Below the pieces are notes generated by a model that had not been told where the DNA came from, searched no databases, and worked only from the letters and a program-made list of their open reading frames with translations. From UHGV virus genome UHGV-0091736: a DNA stretch of 64,000 nt. One strand, given 5' to 3'. The translations under genes were made by a program, and so were the position numbers. Below are positions 1 through 41,479 of this stretch, piece after piece. Numbering within the stretch: position 1 is the first letter of the stretch; each line of letters begins with the position of its first letter. The stretch is from a virus.

Positions 1-527
1 GCTTCGAGGGTTTCCCTGTTAACCCCCTACTCCCGCAGGATAGTCTCTACACTTTCCACTTTCGAATCCATCTACAAGCGATTCCAAAGCTCACACCAAA
101 CCTTTCTGCAAGAGCAACACCAGTGCATTCATTGTTAAGCCAGAACTCTTTAGCAGCATCCTGTCTTTCTCTATTTCTGCCAGTGTTTGATTCAATAGCA
201 TGTGCACTACCTTCTAAGATTTCTAGATGGTCAGTATTACAACAAGCTCTATTCTTGCATTTATGGTTAACTTCATAACCGTCAGGAATTTTTCCAAATT
301 CCTCTTCCATGACGTATCTGTGATACATGACCCATTTGCCATTTATCACTTTTCGAAAGTAACCGTCTTTATTTAATTTGTGTGAGATAGGGATGATACA
401 TCCTGTGCTAGTTGTTTCTAGCACTAGATCTTTCTTAGCCATATCACCTCCTAATAGCTTAGCTCGGTATTGCCCTCAACTTAATGGTCGGGTTTCACCG
501 AGTTCACCAACTTTTACATGCACAATG
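1..527 (-). mobile_element. putative group I-type intron in the DNA polymerase gene (partial, runs off window start); carries HNH ORF 47-442
   Basis: Pol ORF loses similarity to T7 gp5 just before motif C (HDE) and ends HCACKSW*; DNA at the break (TGTGCATGTAAAAGTTGGTGAACTCGGTGAAA...GAGCTAAGCTA) closely matches DNA at the primase-helicase break (12440-12548). Confidence 0.5.
47..442 (-). CDS. HNH homing endonuclease (intron-encoded)
   Basis: 131 aa; His-Me finger motif EVNHKCKNRACCNTDHLE; SD AGGAGG upstream; sits inside the polymerase insertion. Confidence 0.7.
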   Translation of the reverse strand: MAKKDLVLETTSTGCIIPISHKLNKDGYFRKVINGKWVMYHRYVMEEEFGKIPDGYEVNHKCKNRACCNTDHLEILEGSAHAIESNTGRNRERQDAAKEFWLNNECTGVALAERFGVSFGIACRWIRKWKV

Positions 528-2225
528 AAGTTTATGCATATCAATTACCTTAGCACAACGAACTCCATCCTTCTCAATCCACTTGTTAAGGAACATCATA
601 GCGTATTTCATAACAACAGCACCAGCACATTGCAGGAGTGTGTTAAGTGCTTTATGAACCATAACTTTACCAGTGGCATCTCGTCTCATTGTAATCTTGC
701 GACCATCAACACCAATCAAGTACCCTTGAGCAGCTTTCTCTGTCATGCGATCAATGAGGATTGCAATACATGGGTTCTCTGCCAAGAAACGTGCTCGCAT
801 CACTGAACCTTCATCAGCCCCGCCACCTACAATTGAACCAAGCTTAGCATCACCAGCACCATAGTTGAATGCATAGATAAATGTCTTAGCATTGTCACGA
901 GTAGGGAGACCAGCAAGTTTCTGGTTGTGGGAGTGGATATCCCCTTCGAGGAGAATATCACGATACATAATAGCAGAAGCTAAACCGCGTTCTGCCAGAG
1001 CTTTCTTAGCTGGATTATTCTCTTCGATTGCTTCAGCAAGCATATCTCTACATTCTTTGATGAGGTAGTGAGCGAGCATACGAAGTTCAAGTCCAGAACC
1101 ATCATACCCTAAGAATACTTCTTTACCAGCGGGTATGTAATATTTGTAAGCACCTACAGGTTTGTCTTTCTTCCCCGGCTTACCTTTCTCGTAAATTACG
1201 TTAGTACCTTTTCGTATATAACAACCATCAGGAACAACGTTAGTAATAACGAAAGGACGAGAGTGATCACTGTCTGAGTTATAGTCAGACTCAAACAAAC
1301 TGCGACACTCGTGACCAAACAAACCACGGGAGGGAATATTAACCACGATACGATGTTTGAATCGAAAAGTCGGCGTAGCGCAGCTGTTAGCTTCTGCCGA
1401 AAGTTTACCATCTTCGCGTTCCTTTGCTATAAGTCCACTGATAAGACCTAGCCTGTGAGCCGCTACAACACGTCTCTTAAGCAAACTTCCAACACTCCCT
1501 AGCTCACCCCCTAACCCTTCTTCAAGAGTCTCCTCGAGGTTTGTAGGAGCTGTAGGCCACTTGTTTGATGTAGCTAGTGCTTTCTTAATCTCATCAAACG
1601 TTACAGGGTTACGGCGATTAGGGTTTAATCCCAAACCAAACACGTAAGCCTTCATGTAATTCTTAGTCTTAAACCTAAAATGCTTTTCTAAGAATTTCTT
1701 GATATCAGCGTCAACCATCTCGGCTGTCTGCTTCTGCTTAGCACTGCCTCTCATCCAAGCAGTGTACCAAGCCTGATATGTTCCATACTTTCGCATGTCT
1801 TTCTTAATTTCGAAAGTATTCCAAGGCTTCTTAGATACGTTAAACTCTGGAGGAAGAAAGCCCTCATCCATAAGAGCTTCTTTAACTCGTGCATCTTTCG
1901 ATGGGTCAAAGTCTACATATTCTACACAGGTGAATGCTCCACCAATGTCTTCTCTCTTCAGCCCAACCCTATCACAATAAGCTTGAGGCCACTTCTGCAA
2001 AGCACCAGACTTCTTAAACGGCTTCATGTAAGTAGAGCCATCTAATCTCATCTTAGGTAAGAGAGGAATCAACTCTCTATCAATATTAACAATAATCTCT
2101 TTAAGGAGGTGAACATACCACCGAGCATTTCTTCGGTTGAAACTCACTCCGTGCTTTGCTTGCTTAGAGATTATATCAGCGACAGTCATCTCTGTCAAAA
2201 ATGGAAGAGCGTCCGGGTTGCTCAC
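504..2225 (-). CDS. DNA polymerase, family A, T7 gp5-like polymerase domain (5' exon; exon probably ends near 525, motif C lies beyond window)
   Basis: 573 aa; motif A YDGSGLELRMLAHYL; motif B RDNAKTFIYAFNYGAGDAKLG; GVDGRKI...HKALNTLLQCAGA matches T7 gp5 C-terminal region; thumb region alignable to T7 thioredoxin-binding segment. Confidence 0.9.
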   Translation of the reverse strand: MSNPDALPFLTEMTVADIISKQAKHGVSFNRRNARWYVHLLKEIIVNIDRELIPLLPKMRLDGSTYMKPFKKSGALQKWPQAYCDRVGLKREDIGGAFTCVEYVDFDPSKDARVKEALMDEGFLPPEFNVSKKPWNTFEIKKDMRKYGTYQAWYTAWMRGSAKQKQTAEMVDADIKKFLEKHFRFKTKNYMKAYVFGLGLNPNRRNPVTFDEIKKALATSNKWPTAPTNLEETLEEGLGGELGSVGSLLKRRVVAAHRLGLISGLIAKEREDGKLSAEANSCATPTFRFKHRIVVNIPSRGLFGHECRSLFESDYNSDSDHSRPFVITNVVPDGCYIRKGTNVIYEKGKPGKKDKPVGAYKYYIPAGKEVFLGYDGSGLELRMLAHYLIKECRDMLAEAIEENNPAKKALAERGLASAIMYRDILLEGDIHSHNQKLAGLPTRDNAKTFIYAFNYGAGDAKLGSIVGGGADEGSVMRARFLAENPCIAILIDRMTEKAAQGYLIGVDGRKITMRRDATGKVMVHKALNTLLQCAGAVVMKYAMMFLNKWIEKDGVRCAKVIDMHKLHCACKSW

Positions 2226-2241
2226 TTTATACTCCTTTGAA

Positions 2242-2646
2242 TTATTGGTAAAGTAAATCTGTAAATGCTTGGTTGTCAGTTATTGCATCTAGGTCATTAT
2301 GAGATACTCGGATAACATTACCTTCAACTCTCCACGGAGTTGGCGTAGGTGAAGACCTAACTTCAAGAGGCTGCTCTCTGACTAAATGGGCCATGACCCT
2401 CTGATTGGCAACTTCCTCTCTTTCTCGAATAGCTCTTTGGATGTAGGCCAGCTTCATGCCCCAAGCTTCTTCAAACTCTTGAGGATGTTTGTCACTGATA
2501 ACCACATACTGACGCTCAGGGATACCAGATCGAATCTCTGATAATAATTCATGGAACAAATCAAGTTCATGTTCAGTGAGATTCATTTCGATATCATCCC
2601 ACTTGAGAACTAAGAAACGGTTTTGATATCTAGTTGGTAATGGCAT
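2242..2646 (-). CDS. hypothetical protein
   Basis: 134 aa ORF, tightly packed with neighbours. Confidence 0.5.
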   Translation of the reverse strand: MPLPTRYQNRFLVLKWDDIEMNLTEHELDLFHELLSEIRSGIPERQYVVISDKHPQEFEEAWGMKLAYIQRAIREREEVANQRVMAHLVREQPLEVRSSPTPTPWRVEGNVIRVSHNDLDAITDNQAFTDLLYQ

Positions 2647-2649
2647 AGC

Positions 2650-2934
2650 TTAACCTTTTGGGAATGGCATTAAAGACTCCATAGCAGATTTAATTTTGCT
2701 ATTGATTCGAGCATCTCTATAAGAGATAAACTTACCTTTGCTATCTCGTAACATCACATGAGTTCTGGCTGTTGTGTTAGGAAGTAATGTAATCCCAGTT
2801 GGGATATTGTCAACCCCCACAGGGAGTTTGTGAATAGTCTTACTTTCAGTTAATAGGTAAGACCAAGTAATTGGTTTACGATCTGTTCGATTAGGATATG
2901 TGTCTCGAATCTGAACCATAGCTAATTTATTCAT
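2650..2934 (-). CDS. hypothetical protein, tandem paralog of 2936-3187
   Basis: 94 aa; shares RDSKGKFISY...PFPKG with neighbour (ADGKFISY...PFPKGV). Confidence 0.55.
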   Translation of the reverse strand: MNKLAMVQIRDTYPNRTDRKPITWSYLLTESKTIHKLPVGVDNIPTGITLLPNTTARTHVMLRDSKGKFISYRDARINSKIKSAMESLMPFPKG

Positions 2935-2935
2935 A

Positions 2936-3187
2936 TTAAACTCCTTTAGGGAATGGGATGAGGTTTTCTACTGCAACACGAAAAGATTTTTCTACATTCT
3001 TATTCTTATAAGAAATGAATTTACCATCAGCACCACGAAGGATTACGTTAGTACGAGCTGTATTGGAAACTAAAGTGATCATAGAGATGGTGTTATTTTT
3101 TGAGTTGTTGTAGTTGTTATCGAAAGTCCACTTATCCAGACGATCATCCATTACATCAATAATAGTTACAGTTTTTACGATAGACAT
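2936..3187 (-). CDS. hypothetical protein, tandem paralog of 2650-2934
   Basis: 83 aa; conserved GKFISY and C-terminal PFPKG. Confidence 0.55.
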   Translation of the reverse strand: MSIVKTVTIIDVMDDRLDKWTFDNNYNNSKNNTISMITLVSNTARTNVILRGADGKFISYKNKNVEKSFRVAVENLIPFPKGV

Positions 3188-3222
3188 ATTTGTTACCTAA
3201 GAAGTTTAGTTTGGTTTATATA

Positions 3223-3250
3223 AAAGAAAAGGCCACCCATTTGGGTAGCC
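3223..3250 (-). terminator. rho-independent terminator after basic-protein gene
   Basis: minus-strand GGCTACCCaaatGGGTGGCC followed by TTTTCTTTT. Confidence 0.6.
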
Positions 3251-3255
3251 TTATA

Positions 3256-3573
3256 TCATGATGAGCTTAAAGCTCCTTTGCGTGCTCCAGCTGCTTTTCC
3301 AGCTCGATCACCACTTTTGCCGCCGTTTGAACGGTTTGAGCTGACTGATTCAACACGTAAGTTGCTTGACGCATTAGAGCCTCCAGACTTGATAGCTCGT
3401 TTGTGTCCAACGTCTTTACCTCTGACAGCAGCTTTTCCATCGCGCTTTTCAACGATGCGACGTGCACGGTGGCGCTGAGCATCTCCGCTCTTGCTCCCAA
3501 TGCCTGTTTCACCACGGGCAATTGCGGTACGTCTTTCTTGTGCATAATCTCTCTTTCCTACATGGTCTGCCAT
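3256..3573 (-). CDS. small highly basic Gly/Ser/Arg/Lys-rich protein (putative nucleic-acid-binding)
   Basis: 105 aa; SD AAGGAG 7 nt before ATG; G-rich first codon position; late-type TAATGTATA motif about 37 nt upstream; terminator immediately downstream. Confidence 0.55.
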   Translation of the reverse strand: MADHVGKRDYAQERRTAIARGETGIGSKSGDAQRHRARRIVEKRDGKAAVRGKDVGHKRAIKSGGSNASSNLRVESVSSNRSNGGKSGDRAGKAAGARKGALSSS

Positions 3574-3609
3574 TTAAAACTCCTTAACATATCAGTGTAC
3601 ACTAAGGAG

Positions 3610-3618
3610 TATACATTA
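3610..3618 (-). promoter_or_regulatory. TAATGTATA promoter-like motif (minus strand)
   Basis: same 9-mer occurs at 47721 and 63306 about 35-40 nt upstream of start codons. Confidence 0.4.
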
Positions 3619-3629
3619 TAAGTTACTGT

Positions 3630-5348
3630 TTAAGCTTTCTTTTCCATTGCTTTAACAATCGCCTTACAGAAACCAGAACGAACAATATCATCTGATTCAC
3701 CATCTACAATCTCAGCAAACTCATACAGATCATGTTCATCAATAAAGTTAGTAGCCCAAGTAAGACCACTCTCACGACCACGCATATCATGCTGGTTAGT
3801 ATCACCCATGCAGAACAGCTGAGAGGTTTCTCCCAATCGAGTCATGATTGAGAAGGCTTCATCTTTAGTTGTGTTCTGGAACTCATCCACGATAACAATG
3901 GCATCATTGAAAGAGCGACCACGGAGATATTCCAGAGGTACAAATTCAATGTTACCATTTCCGATTTGGCATTCATAGAACCCCTTACCATATCGCTGAG
4001 TAATAACATCAATGATAGGCATCAGGTATGGTTCAAACTTCTCACGCATCCCCCCCGGAAGTAACCCAAGAGAGTTACCCATGCCGACCGAAGGGCGACT
4101 CAGAATGATCTTCTGAATCTTACCACTCTTCAGTGCATCAATAACTGTGGAAGTGATTACAAAGGTCTTACCACAGTTACCTGTCACGAAAATGTTATCA
4201 TCTCGACGGAGCAACAGAGCACCTGTTGAGGTTGTAAAGCAATATTTAAAACCATCCTCCGTCTTCATCTTTGTGATCACAGCTTTCCCAGATTGTGGGT
4301 TGTTTGGGGTAATACTGATATGTGTCTGTTTAGAGAAATAAACACGATACTCTAGAGATTTACGAGTATATCCACCATACTCCCGACCAACTCTGTCGTA
4401 AGTTATGATAGATGATTTGTAACCACACTGCATTCCTACAAACTGGATATAGTCTGCATCATCTTTATCGGAAGTAAAGAAAGGTGGTAGTCTATTTCCT
4501 TGTAGGGCAAAACCCCCGTCCCAGAATTTAATCTCATCAAAGATGATTTTAGCATCACTCTTGTTACACAAAGGCCAGTCTTTATACCTTTTAGTCGCAC
4601 CTAGAAGAGAGAAAGATATTACATGAAACCCTGTATCATCTGACTTTTCTGAGTAATCTAAATGGAGAGTATCCAATAACTCTTTGAGTCGAGAAATCTT
4701 CCTCTCTTTCTTTAATCTGAAGACGAATCGCGAGGTGGACTCTGTTTCCAAGTGGGCATCAGCCTTGATGGCAACATGAAGACGTAATTCAGGTTCAGAT
4801 AGACCTAAACTTTTCCCTGAAACAAAGTTGGATGTAGTTTTAATTAGACCCTCAAACCCTATCTTCTTCTTGTGGTGCCTTGAAAGAAGATCAGATACCT
4901 TGATTTTGTTCGCTTTGTCTTTATCTCCCTTACGATAATAAACGACATTATGGTCATCACATAACGCCTGAGATATCCCACGGTATGTTTTAAACAAGTT
5001 CAACTCTTTACACTCTTGTTTAATATAAGCTACAGGTTTTTCTAAATGAGACTCTCCTGTGGTTAAGTTTACTGCTGTTATTAAATCACCTTCCACATAG
5101 TCAGAAATCTTTTTCCATCCAAACTCTGAGAGAAACTCGGTATCCTTATCAACACAGCCCGCAGGAGCGTCTGTGAACACAACTTGTTTAGTCTTAATAG
5201 CATTGAGTAGCTCAGACTGAAACTGGTTCTGAGGGACTACAGGCTTTGCTAAAACCACCTCTTCATACTCTCGCTTACCCTTACGAGTAACAAGTGCTTC
5301 CCGACGAAGGTCTTTCCGTGATTCTTTCCTTGATTGACGACGACTCAT
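3630..5348 (-). CDS. phoH: PhoH-like ATPase interrupted by an intein
   Basis: 572 aa; P-loop reconstituted as DAPAG + CGKT across the insert; PhoH motifs LSRPSVGMGNSLGLLPGG, VIVDEFQNTT, MGDTNQHD. Confidence 0.8.
   Translation of the reverse strand: MSRRQSRKESRKDLRREALVTRKGKREYEEVVLAKPVVPQNQFQSELLNAIKTKQVVFTDAPAGCVDKDTEFLSEFGWKKISDYVEGDLITAVNLTTGESHLEKPVAYIKQECKELNLFKTYRGISQALCDDHNVVYYRKGDKDKANKIKVSDLLSRHHKKKIGFEGLIKTTSNFVSGKSLGLSEPELRLHVAIKADAHLETESTSRFVFRLKKERKISRLKELLDTLHLDYSEKSDDTGFHVISFSLLGATKRYKDWPLCNKSDAKIIFDEIKFWDGGFALQGNRLPPFFTSDKDDADYIQFVGMQCGYKSSIITYDRVGREYGGYTRKSLEYRVYFSKQTHISITPNNPQSGKAVITKMKTEDGFKYCFTTSTGALLLRRDDNIFVTGNCGKTFVITSTVIDALKSGKIQKIILSRPSVGMGNSLGLLPGGMREKFEPYLMPIIDVITQRYGKGFYECQIGNGNIEFVPLEYLRGRSFNDAIVIVDEFQNTTKDEAFSIMTRLGETSQLFCMGDTNQHDMRGRESGLTWATNFIDEHDLYEFAEIVDGESDDIVRSGFCKAIVKAMEKKA
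4176..5156 (-). mobile_element. intein (327 aa) inside PhoH Walker A motif
   Basis: Begins C-VDKDTEF (block A like), TGESH (block B TxxH), ends FVTGN followed by +1 Cys of CGKT; in frame, no stops. Confidence 0.6.
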
Positions 5349-5530
5349 TTACGCTCTCCAATTTCTTCGTAATGACACTCAGTGGTTAAACAATCTTTAC
5401 AGATTGCTGTGTAAACCCTGACGTTAGTAAATCGTTTGTTCTTCCCTTTGGTTGGAGAGCCTTTGGCAAGCTCTCTGATAACCTTGTTACTTAAATGAAG
5501 GTTTGTTCCTTCACATTTAGAGCACTTCAT
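5345..5530 (-). CDS. small zinc-ribbon protein
   Basis: 61 aa with CSKC...CKDC pairs. Confidence 0.45.
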   Translation of the reverse strand: MKCSKCEGTNLHLSNKVIRELAKGSPTKGKNKRFTNVRVYTAICKDCLTTECHYEEIGERK

Positions 5531-27762: not shown

Positions 27763-27867
27763 AACTACCTCCTATTTGATTTGGCGCACCGTGTAGGACT
27801 CCAACCTACAACCTATTTCTTAGAAGGAAATTGCTCTCTGCAATTGAGCTAACGGCGCTTATTTCAG

Positions 27868-40087: not shown

Positions 40088-40699
40088 ATGTCACTAGATA
40101 AACAAATTTATGAAGCTCTAACTGGTAACAATCTTAGTGTAGATGAAAAGAAAGCACTATTGAATATGTTGAAAGAGCGTGACCAATGGAGGAAGTATAA
40201 TAGGATTTTGTCTTTCAAGGCGTATGACTTCCAAAAGAAATTTTATGCAGCAGGATTGAAGCATAGGTTCAGGTTTCTCTGTGCGGCTAACCGAGTTGGG
40301 AAAAGTTACAGTGAAGCGTACGAATTCGCATGCCACGTTACCGGAAGATATCCAACATGGTGGACCGGTCATAAGTTTAAGAGGCCAATACTTGCGTGGG
40401 CTGTAGGGATTACAGGGGACTCAACAAGGAAAGTATTGCAAAAAGAATTATTTGGTACACCAATTGGAAAGGACACTAATCTGCTAGGTACTGGAGTTAT
40501 TCCACGAGATGCAATAGTAATAGATACTATAGAAAGGGATGGTAATAAGCTACAGATAGTACAGATTAAGCACCAGAATGAAAGGGGTGAGTTTGATGGA
40601 TTAAGTACGTTAGAATTTCGATCAACACAACAGGGTGAACATACACTGATGGGTGCTACTGTTGATTATATATGGCTGGATGAAGAGGATTGTATATAA
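40088..40699 (+). CDS. terminase large subunit, 5' exon (ATPase Walker A/B)
   Basis: Walker A AANRVGKS; Walker B YIWLDEE; ORF stops 5 codons after DEE. Confidence 0.8.
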   Translation: MSLDKQIYEALTGNNLSVDEKKALLNMLKERDQWRKYNRILSFKAYDFQKKFYAAGLKHRFRFLCAANRVGKSYSEAYEFACHVTGRYPTWWTGHKFKRPILAWAVGITGDSTRKVLQKELFGTPIGKDTNLLGTGVIPRDAIVIDTIERDGNKLQIVQIKHQNERGEFDGLSTLEFRSTQQGEHTLMGATVDYIWLDEEDCI

Positions 40700-41479
40700 C
40701 ATAGCTAGAAGTGTTGGTCCTCTATAAACTCGGTGAATTGCTGGAACCTCTGACCCTTAAGTGGAAGACAATCAGCAGCGAAGATAATGTATAACTTACT
40801 CATGATACATTATAACGTTCAACGACTATCGAAAGCATAGCCCGTATGGGTGAAGAAGCAAGTAGAGTAGATACCAAGTGGTATCGAAGTGCCGAGCAAA
40901 ACTAAGGAGTGATACATTGGGTAGACCTAACAAATCATTAGATTCAACCAAAACATGTTCAGTGTGCTCTGTAACAAAAGACATAGAATCTTTTGCAATA
41001 AGAACAAGAGCAATATCCACTGGAGAGGTTAGAATCTACCGTAAGTCTCAATGCAAAGAGTGCATGGCTGAGATGAGAAGGGATTGGGGTAAGAATAATC
41101 CAGATAAGATTCGTGAGAATAATAATTCTCCAAATAAGAGAGCTTGCGATAATGCAAGACGGGCTGGATTAGAAACTGCTTCTATTATCAGAGATGATGA
41201 GTATAATAAATTTGTTATGGAAGAAATGTATGAACTTCGAAATCTTAGAACAAAGGAAACTGGATTTCAATGGCATGTAGATCACATAATCCCTTTAAAA
41301 GGTAATAACGTATGTGGTTTTCATGTCTGGTATAACTTGCAGGTAGTTCCTGCTGTTTTCAACCTATCTAAGAGTAATAGTTTTGATGATATAGTCTGCT
41401 CTGCATGGAAACATGCAGCTGGAGAAATCCGGGATGAGATTAACGATCTTGTCTGAACAACACGCCATATGAGTCTATG
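40691..41479 (+). mobile_element. putative group I-type intron splitting the large terminase gene; carries HNH ORF
   Basis: ATPase motifs resume at AIFAQCV...TATPENG in 41477 ORF; no SD before exon 2; insert has AAACTCGGTGAA block shared with the polymerase and helicase insertions. Confidence 0.6.
40878..41456 (+). CDS. HNH homing endonuclease (intron-encoded; start may be TTG at 40917)
   Basis: Zn-finger CSVCS...CKEC plus HNH core [38 protein letters not shown]. Confidence 0.7.

Follow-up and report, generated by a model that had tools for sequence, protein, structure and literature searches.

Why a phage DNA polymerase gene should stop within its catalytic motif and be followed by an HNH endonuclease gene, and where the rest of the enzyme is encoded, is the question raised by the left end of the stretch analysed here (UHGV-0091736, 64,000 nucleotides, hereafter the window). 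Megablast identified the window as Kuravirus DNA (phiEco32-like coliphages, Gordonclarkvirinae), and the genes at its left end all lie on the minus strand. A preliminary description had reported a polymerase ORF ending in CACKSW and an HNH ORF at 47-442, both of which are found exactly there, and had proposed that the gene was broken before motif C by an HNH-carrying intron. Our comparisons indicate, with a probability of about 0.92, that the insertion is a functional mobile IA2 group I intron of the PhiI/W31 type, a reading built on sequence data. The polymerase locus comprises the following features.

504..2225, minus strand: family-A DNA polymerase ORF, 573 aa, from the ORF list
534..2225, minus strand: polymerase exon 1, 564 codons, GTG start at 2225, collinear with the ES17 polymerase up to ...VIDMH
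504..533, minus strand: read-through of exon 1 into the intron, nine codons (KLHCACKSW) and a stop
1..533, minus strand: predicted group I (IA2) intron, nucleotides 1-533 of 607, from its boundaries, T7-like homology and structure
47..442, minus strand: predicted gene for a 131-aa HNH homing endonuclease, within the loop of P6a

The polymerase ORF terminates in ...NKWIEKDGVRCAKVIDMHKLHCACKSW, also given as ...VIDMHKLHCACKSW, in both cases followed by the stop codon. Pfam DNA_pol_A covers residues 361-564 and the match ends at profile position 334 of 381, while the polymerase of phage ES17 is one contiguous protein of 614 aa that reads ...VIDMH-DEGQFSVNRND... (...VIDMHDEGQFSV...). The last codon of exon 1, CAU, encodes the histidine of motif C (HDE), so that the break announced earlier is real, but it falls after His564 (window position 534) and not ahead of the motif, separating His from Asp-Glu (H/DE; here and below a slash marks the junction). 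The residues KLHCACKSW that precede the stop are read-through into the intron and no part of the polymerase sequence.

Scanning IMG/VR viral contigs for an exact copy of the first 57 nt of the window gave no match. An exact-protein look-up with the window HNH led to a metagenome scaffold (ENA ERZ28589921 scaffold_19, 76,613 bp) that shows 0 mismatches to window positions 1..4442 (4442 nt) and extends the sequence leftward. The intron on this source scaffold is likewise 607 nt long (3910..4516 of the retrieved stretch); the scaffold supplies its final 74 nucleotides and then a 153-nt exon 2 that starts with GAUGAG and encodes DEGQFSVNRNDVKKLKEHTELCVKKAGEYLNMECPLASDCQIGLNWMHTH before its stop codon. 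The expectation that a 3′ exon would be found beyond the window start was thus borne out: 607 nt separate the break from an exon 2 whose first residues are DEGQ. Phage 1-6bf has an insertion of the same length, 607 nt, extending from AAACUUCAUU... to ...AACAUAAAUG, with GAUGAGGGCCAG directly downstream; the boundaries were set by comparing the intronless ES17 with the intron-bearing 1-6bf and the source scaffold. Conceptual splicing gives the junction ...GATATGCAT/GATGAGGGC... (CAU/GAUGAG) and a polymerase of 614 aa that differs from that of ES17 at 3 residues. This polymerase subunit has no exonuclease domain, and the 3′-5′ exonuclease is a separate 185-aa gene (11129..11686, minus strand), about 9 kb away, which overlaps the stop codon of helicase exon 2 and is labelled ‘DNA polymerase exonuclease subunit’ in relatives. 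An intein was considered as an alternative form of insertion and rejected, given the in-frame stop nine codons into the insertion and the separate start and ribosome-binding site of the HNH ORF.

The RNA that would be transcribed from the insertion can be drawn as a group I core, whose parts in the window are listed here.

518..539, minus strand: P1 with the internal guide sequence, read directly from the sequence
455..511, minus strand: 5′ core, from covariation counts and the same helices in RNAalifold
511..506: P3 5′ strand
502..497 with 468..463: P4
492..473: P5 hairpin
462..461: P6 5′ strand
457..455: P6a 5′ strand
1..45, minus strand: 3′ core within the window, from the alignment of homologues, with the architecture of PhiI/W31 in PMC3428280
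45..41: P7 5′ strand, GACUA
40..31: P7.1 hairpin
30..28: GUA linker
27..6: shortened P7.2

The remaining parts, in the 74 nt beyond the window start, are the 3′ strand of P3, P8, the 3′ strand of P7, P9 and the omega-G. In P1 the exon sequence AUGCAU (539..534) pairs with the intron sequence GUGCAU (523..518), located 10 nt downstream, placing a U.G pair at the 5′ splice site; this helix is paired in all 11 aligned sequences and contains one compensatory pair. Exon 1 ends in U and the intron in G (...AAAUG/ on the source scaffold), and a P10 is possible between intron UUCAUU (529..524), just 5′ of the guide sequence, and exon-2 GAUGAG. P1 leads straight to J1/3 and P3, with no P2.

The structure was examined on the 11 homologues, aligned after removal of their ORFs, with P1, P3, P4, P5, P6, P6a, P7, P7.1, P8 and P9 drawn by hand. 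Pairing was found in 99.6% of the 495 cells formed by 45 base pairs, and compensatory double changes appeared in 19 of those pairs, among them five of six in P3 and four of five in P8. Sliding the partners by 1-3 columns lowered pairing to only 31-46%, and none of 500 shuffles reached the observed covariation score. The columns AGACUA, UCC/GGA of the hairpin and GUA are invariant among the homologues, and since P7 and P7.1 do not vary, they are uninformative for covariation. RNAalifold, run independently, gave the same helices minus the P7 pseudoknot, which that program cannot draw. One of the changes, a C-G to U-A double change in P8, distinguishes the source copy from that of 1-6bf. Against Rfam RF00028, with its gathering score of 50, the truncated window copy scored 11.7 bits and full-length copies 26-27.5 bits. 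Yet the annotated introns of 13a, JeanTinguely and K1F reached only 36-38 bits, so the gathering threshold is non-diagnostic for this ORF-bearing family and the low score of the polymerase intron constitutes weak evidence against its identity.

The HNH ORF starts 61 bases past the end of the polymerase ORF, preceded by the ribosome-binding site AGGAGG at 452..447, and matches Pfam HNH_3 with 46.5 bits (cut-off 24.8; E 2.9e-12). It is full length and lies between the two strands of P6a, a placement supported by the covariation of P6 and P6a, and its final codons W-K-V-stop (58..47) double as the 3′ strands of P6a and P6. The product is 59% identical to the intron ORF of phage 13a over all 131 aa without gaps; a PDB sequence search with the window HNH gave no meaningful match.

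Megablast matched 86 related records, of which 75 match exon 1 only up to window position ~535 and 11, representing eight distinct phages, carry the insertion. A more distant blastn search with the 607 nt detected homologues of the insertion in numerous T7-like phages as well as in Vibrio phage Vp_R1 (Grimontviridae). Coverage of the intron was 98-99% in T7-like phages such as Teetrevirus VSG32 (98%, E 1e-42), 83% in Teseptimavirus 13a (E 6e-20), 62% in Kayfunavirus K1F and about 82% in Vp_R1 (E 2e-44), and further copies came from Teseptimavirus JeanTinguely and from Aeromonas, Edwardsiella and Klebsiella members of Autographiviridae. Each copy follows the same CAU and in all of them exon 2 starts with GAYGAR, the contexts being DMH/DEGQ here, AWVH/DEIQ in 13a and MMH/DEFQ in Vp_R1. 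Gene 5 is entered as a joined CDS in RefSeq (13a, K1F) and in GenBank (JeanTinguely). The suggestion of an HNH-carrying intron is thus upheld by the contiguous polymerase of ES17, the covarying group I fold and the annotation of the family as introns in T7-like phages. Between genera, the intron is 91% conserved relative to PAS59 against 78% and 72% for the flanking exons, and 85% relative to ECBP2 against 77% and 70%. The patchy spread and the higher conservation of the intron than of the exons are consistent with mobility of a putative homing element. In the motif-C copies of Edwardsiella DT115P1 and Klebsiella RCIP0053 an additional hairpin, ACGUCGAGUAAUUGACGU, separates P1 from P3; this hairpin is a P2 missing from the other members of the family.

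The preliminary description had also pointed to near-identical DNA at a second break, in the primase-helicase gene, and had taken this as a sign of related introns. The features concerned are these.

12525..14090, minus strand: primase-helicase ORF, ending in the second break
12555..14090, minus strand: primase-helicase exon 1, ending ...LMR (...GSRSLMR)
11935..12554, minus strand: second group I intron, 620 nt, RF00028 48.6 bits, E 2.7e-9
12113..12448, minus strand: HNH ORF of this intron, 111 aa, Pfam HNH_3
11680..11934, minus strand: primase-helicase exon 2; intronless relatives join exactly at 12555/11934

The three blocks said to be shared by the two breaks are present (GCATGTAAAA, TGAACTC[G/A]G[T/G]GAAA and GAGCTAAGCTA), and the common ribozyme core, together with the RF00028 score, supports the kinship of the introns; near-identity of the DNA does not hold, as the first ~100 nt of both insertions agree at 65 of 98 positions (66%). 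The alignment of the two breaks scored 65.5 compared with 21.7 ± 4.6 (maximum 39) in 300 shuffles, so their similarity is far beyond chance. The blocks identical in both introns correspond to the ribozyme core, namely the guide sequence with J1-3, P3-P4-J4/5 and P4′-P6, and the ending ‘CACK’ is common to the two truncated ORFs because the RNA is conserved there (IGS/J1-3). P1 of the primase-helicase intron pairs AUGCGU with GCGCAU, and its differences from the polymerase intron in P1, P3 and P4 are compensatory. Although both belong to HNH_3, the HNH proteins of the two introns showed no detectable similarity to each other. The primase-helicase intron was found at full length in none of 50,697 phage genomes, where the best coverage was 18%. 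Segments of its core share 92-97% identity with introns that occupy other sites in KBNP1711 (polymerase) and VTCCBPA_211 (helicase, near window position 12843). Escherichia phage O18-011 has an intron-like element with an HNH ORF (1002..1840 of the retrieved stretch) in the interval from the helicase stop codon to the start of the exonuclease gene. The 3′ core of this element, at 84%, comes closest to the window primase-helicase intron, and the element may be a footprint of ectopic movement.

A polymerase made in pieces would be another explanation of this arrangement: a free-standing HNH gene would have split the polymerase, and the fragments of 573 aa and 51 aa (M-DEGQ...) would assemble without splicing. 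Such a situation has a precedent in Aeromonas phage Aeh1, where nrdA is split by mobE. The GenBank records of relatives do list three CDS, a polymerase, an endonuclease and a 51-aa ‘DNA polymerase-like protein’, and in the Kuravirus copies the last three intron bases form an in-frame AUG directly before exon 2. The short ORF occurs in three of those records, as follows.

5349..5504 of the retrieved stretch (two records) and 1005..1160 of the retrieved stretch (one record): 51-aa exon-2 ORF

However, this ORF was annotated because the terminal ...AUG of the intron creates a start codon in frame, and it is an annotation artefact of the unrecognised intron. The homologous T7-like and Vibrio copies do not have that AUG, no Shine-Dalgarno sequence is found ahead of it, and the split would fall inside one catalytic motif, leaving H on one side and DE on the other. 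Moreover, the non-coding flanks, about 210 nt, show conservation and compensatory changes in ten helices, none of which a free-standing gene would need. We consider assembly from fragments very improbable.

Slightly less probable again is a decayed intron, that is, an insertion that no longer splices and leaves the polymerase as a pseudogene, with another polymerase replicating the genome. The shortening of P7.2 relative to the T7-like copies and the low Rfam score would agree with decay, but exon 2 is intact and in frame, every core helix is kept, recent double changes preserve pairing and the HNH ORF is full length. The insertion is carried by eight independently isolated plaque-forming phages, and near the replication module no second gene with a polymerase domain was found, only the exonuclease subunit at 11129..11686. 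As for an error of assembly, conceivable for a scaffold of metagenomic origin, the same insertion at the same nucleotide in eight independently sequenced genomes of cultured phages excludes it, and the margin over the shuffle maximum argues against a chance likeness of the two breaks; these are the least credible of the options, with hardly any weight left to them.

With the functional mobile intron as the preferred reading, we infer splicing and homing in the window phage along the following lines. The polymerase pre-mRNA would fold into a ribozyme whose P1 displays the U.G pair of the 5′ splice site and whose helices P3-P9, together with P7, would form the guanosine-binding core. Exogenous guanosine would attack after U534, and the freed exon 1 would then attack after the terminal G of the intron, yielding CAU/GAU GAG, restoring H-D-E and allowing translation of the 614-aa polymerase. 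The HNH gene would be expressed from the P6a loop by means of its own ribosome-binding site. In a mixed infection the endonuclease would cut or nick intronless polymerase alleles near the TGCAY/GAYGAG insertion site, and recombinational repair would copy the intron into the cut allele, the process known as homing.

Recognition of the intron bears mainly on annotation. Deposited Kuravirus and Suseptimavirus genomes annotate no intron in the polymerase gene, which is entered there in the form of two or three unrelated CDS, with a 573-aa product that has neither the catalytic Asp nor the Glu; once the intron is recognised, a normal enzyme of 614 aa is restored, and correct annotation is the main value of the finding. 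No description of an intron in Kuravirus or phiEco32-like polymerase genes was found in the literature searched (Kuravirus, phiEco32, ECBP2, SU7). The range of the PhiI/W31 family now comprises T7-like phages and two further lineages at exactly the same codon boundary, and it follows from this shared boundary that the target is the conserved motif-C coding DNA (TGCAT/GAYGAG) and not one particular phage. The polymerase intron leaves the current understanding of group I introns and homing unchanged.

Other elements of the window are listed below.

40691..41464, plus strand: third group I intron, 774 nt, in the large terminase gene, RF00028 45 bits, E 3e-8
4176..5156, minus strand: in-frame insertion of 327 aa in the PhoH P-loop, inside the PhoH ORF 3630..5348
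8748..9272, minus strand: free-standing HNH_3 endonuclease ORF, 174 aa, between a dCTP-deaminase-like gene and small ORFs
27785..27858, minus strand: tRNA-Arg(UCU), Rfam 60 bits, gathering score 29

The terminase intron, which is absent from the records of related phages, splits the gene after ...IWLDEED, exon 2 starting with PYESMA, and an HNH-like ORF (40878..41456) overlaps its 3′ core. Terminase exon 1 is 84.5% and exon 2 98.9% identical to ES17, a difference that looks like a co-conversion tract. The PhoH insertion (APAG/C...VTGN/CGKT) has intein-like termini, with Cys first, Asn last and Cys following. None of the 80 related records contains it, and it has no Pfam match, including none to Hint/intein or LAGLIDADG domains; it may be a divergent intein.

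It is possible, though at somewhat less than even odds, that the Gordonclarkvirinae coliphages are a hot spot in which one IA2 core type has been repeatedly re-targeted, each site with a different HNH, and that the motif-C intron has crossed at least three lineages. The sites concerned would be polymerase motif C, the polymerase of KBNP1711 (where the intron interrupts the codon that follows FIYAFN), the terminase and two sites in helicase genes, and the lineages with the motif-C intron are Autographiviridae, Gordonclarkvirinae and Grimontviridae. If true, a genome of 76 kb would carry three introns besides an insert resembling an intein, with two or three of these elements missing from 50,697 phage records, and would offer a natural system for recombination between intron cores and endonuclease genes and for ectopic movement.

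The closest known counterparts of the polymerase intron belong to T7-like phages, in which the family has been described since 2004 (Bonocora & Shub 2004, via PMC3428280). In that paper, the polymerase introns of PhiI and W31 are classed as IA2, without P2 and with G-U-A as the link from P7.1 to P7.2, have the HNH endonuclease I-TslI in P6a, are placed at Pol I site 881 and are said to self-splice (PMC3428280, citing Bonocora & Shub 2004). The window intron agrees with this published description, through which PhiI and W31 are known here, in its site after the motif-C histidine (Pol I site 881), the IA2 type, the lack of P2 and the GUA that joins P7.1 to P7.2. At the level of sequence, the element agrees with the published intron in each of these traits. 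Residues His881-Asp882-Glu883 make up motif C of Escherichia coli Pol I. Bonocora and Shub are also said to have reported in 2009 that the PhiI intron homes in a manner dependent on I-TslI and that T3 has a free-standing homologue which cuts at this site too. ‘Collaborative homing’ is the term under which a review summarises such relationships (PMC3984707).

Compared with the T7-like copies of 13a, K1F and JeanTinguely, the window intron likewise has a 131-aa HNH ORF in P6a whose 3′ end forms P6a and P6, whereas its P5 is longer by about 9 nt and its P7.2, as in the Kuravirus copies generally, is shorter. The host also differs, being a Gordonclarkvirinae podophage with the exonuclease domain of the polymerase encoded separately, and so does the intron end: the T7-like and Vibrio copies finish in ...AGAAAG/GAUGAG, in contrast to the ...AAAUG of the window intron, which generates the in-frame AUG. 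The introns of SPO1, SP82 and Bastille (I-HmuI, I-HmuII, I-BasI) and of Pf-WMP3 (I-PfoP3I) similarly combine a group I intron and an HNH gene in family-A phage polymerase genes, but they occupy another site (Pol I 674, in the finger subdomain) and were not among the blastn matches to the window polymerase intron. For Pf-WMP3, an IA2 intron with the ORF in P6a is described in PMC3428280. Nearer in host, the other Gordonclarkvirinae introns (window primase-helicase, KBNP1711 polymerase and VTCCBPA_211 helicase) have the same core type with an HNH ORF in P6a, share the blocks UGAAYUCRGKGAAA and GAGCUAAGC with the window polymerase intron and possess a P5 segment that is identical among the three. 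Their insertion sites and guide sequences nevertheless differ from those of the polymerase intron, and their core identity to it is only about 66%. The polymerase insertion is thus a known intron family in a new host lineage and not a new kind of element.
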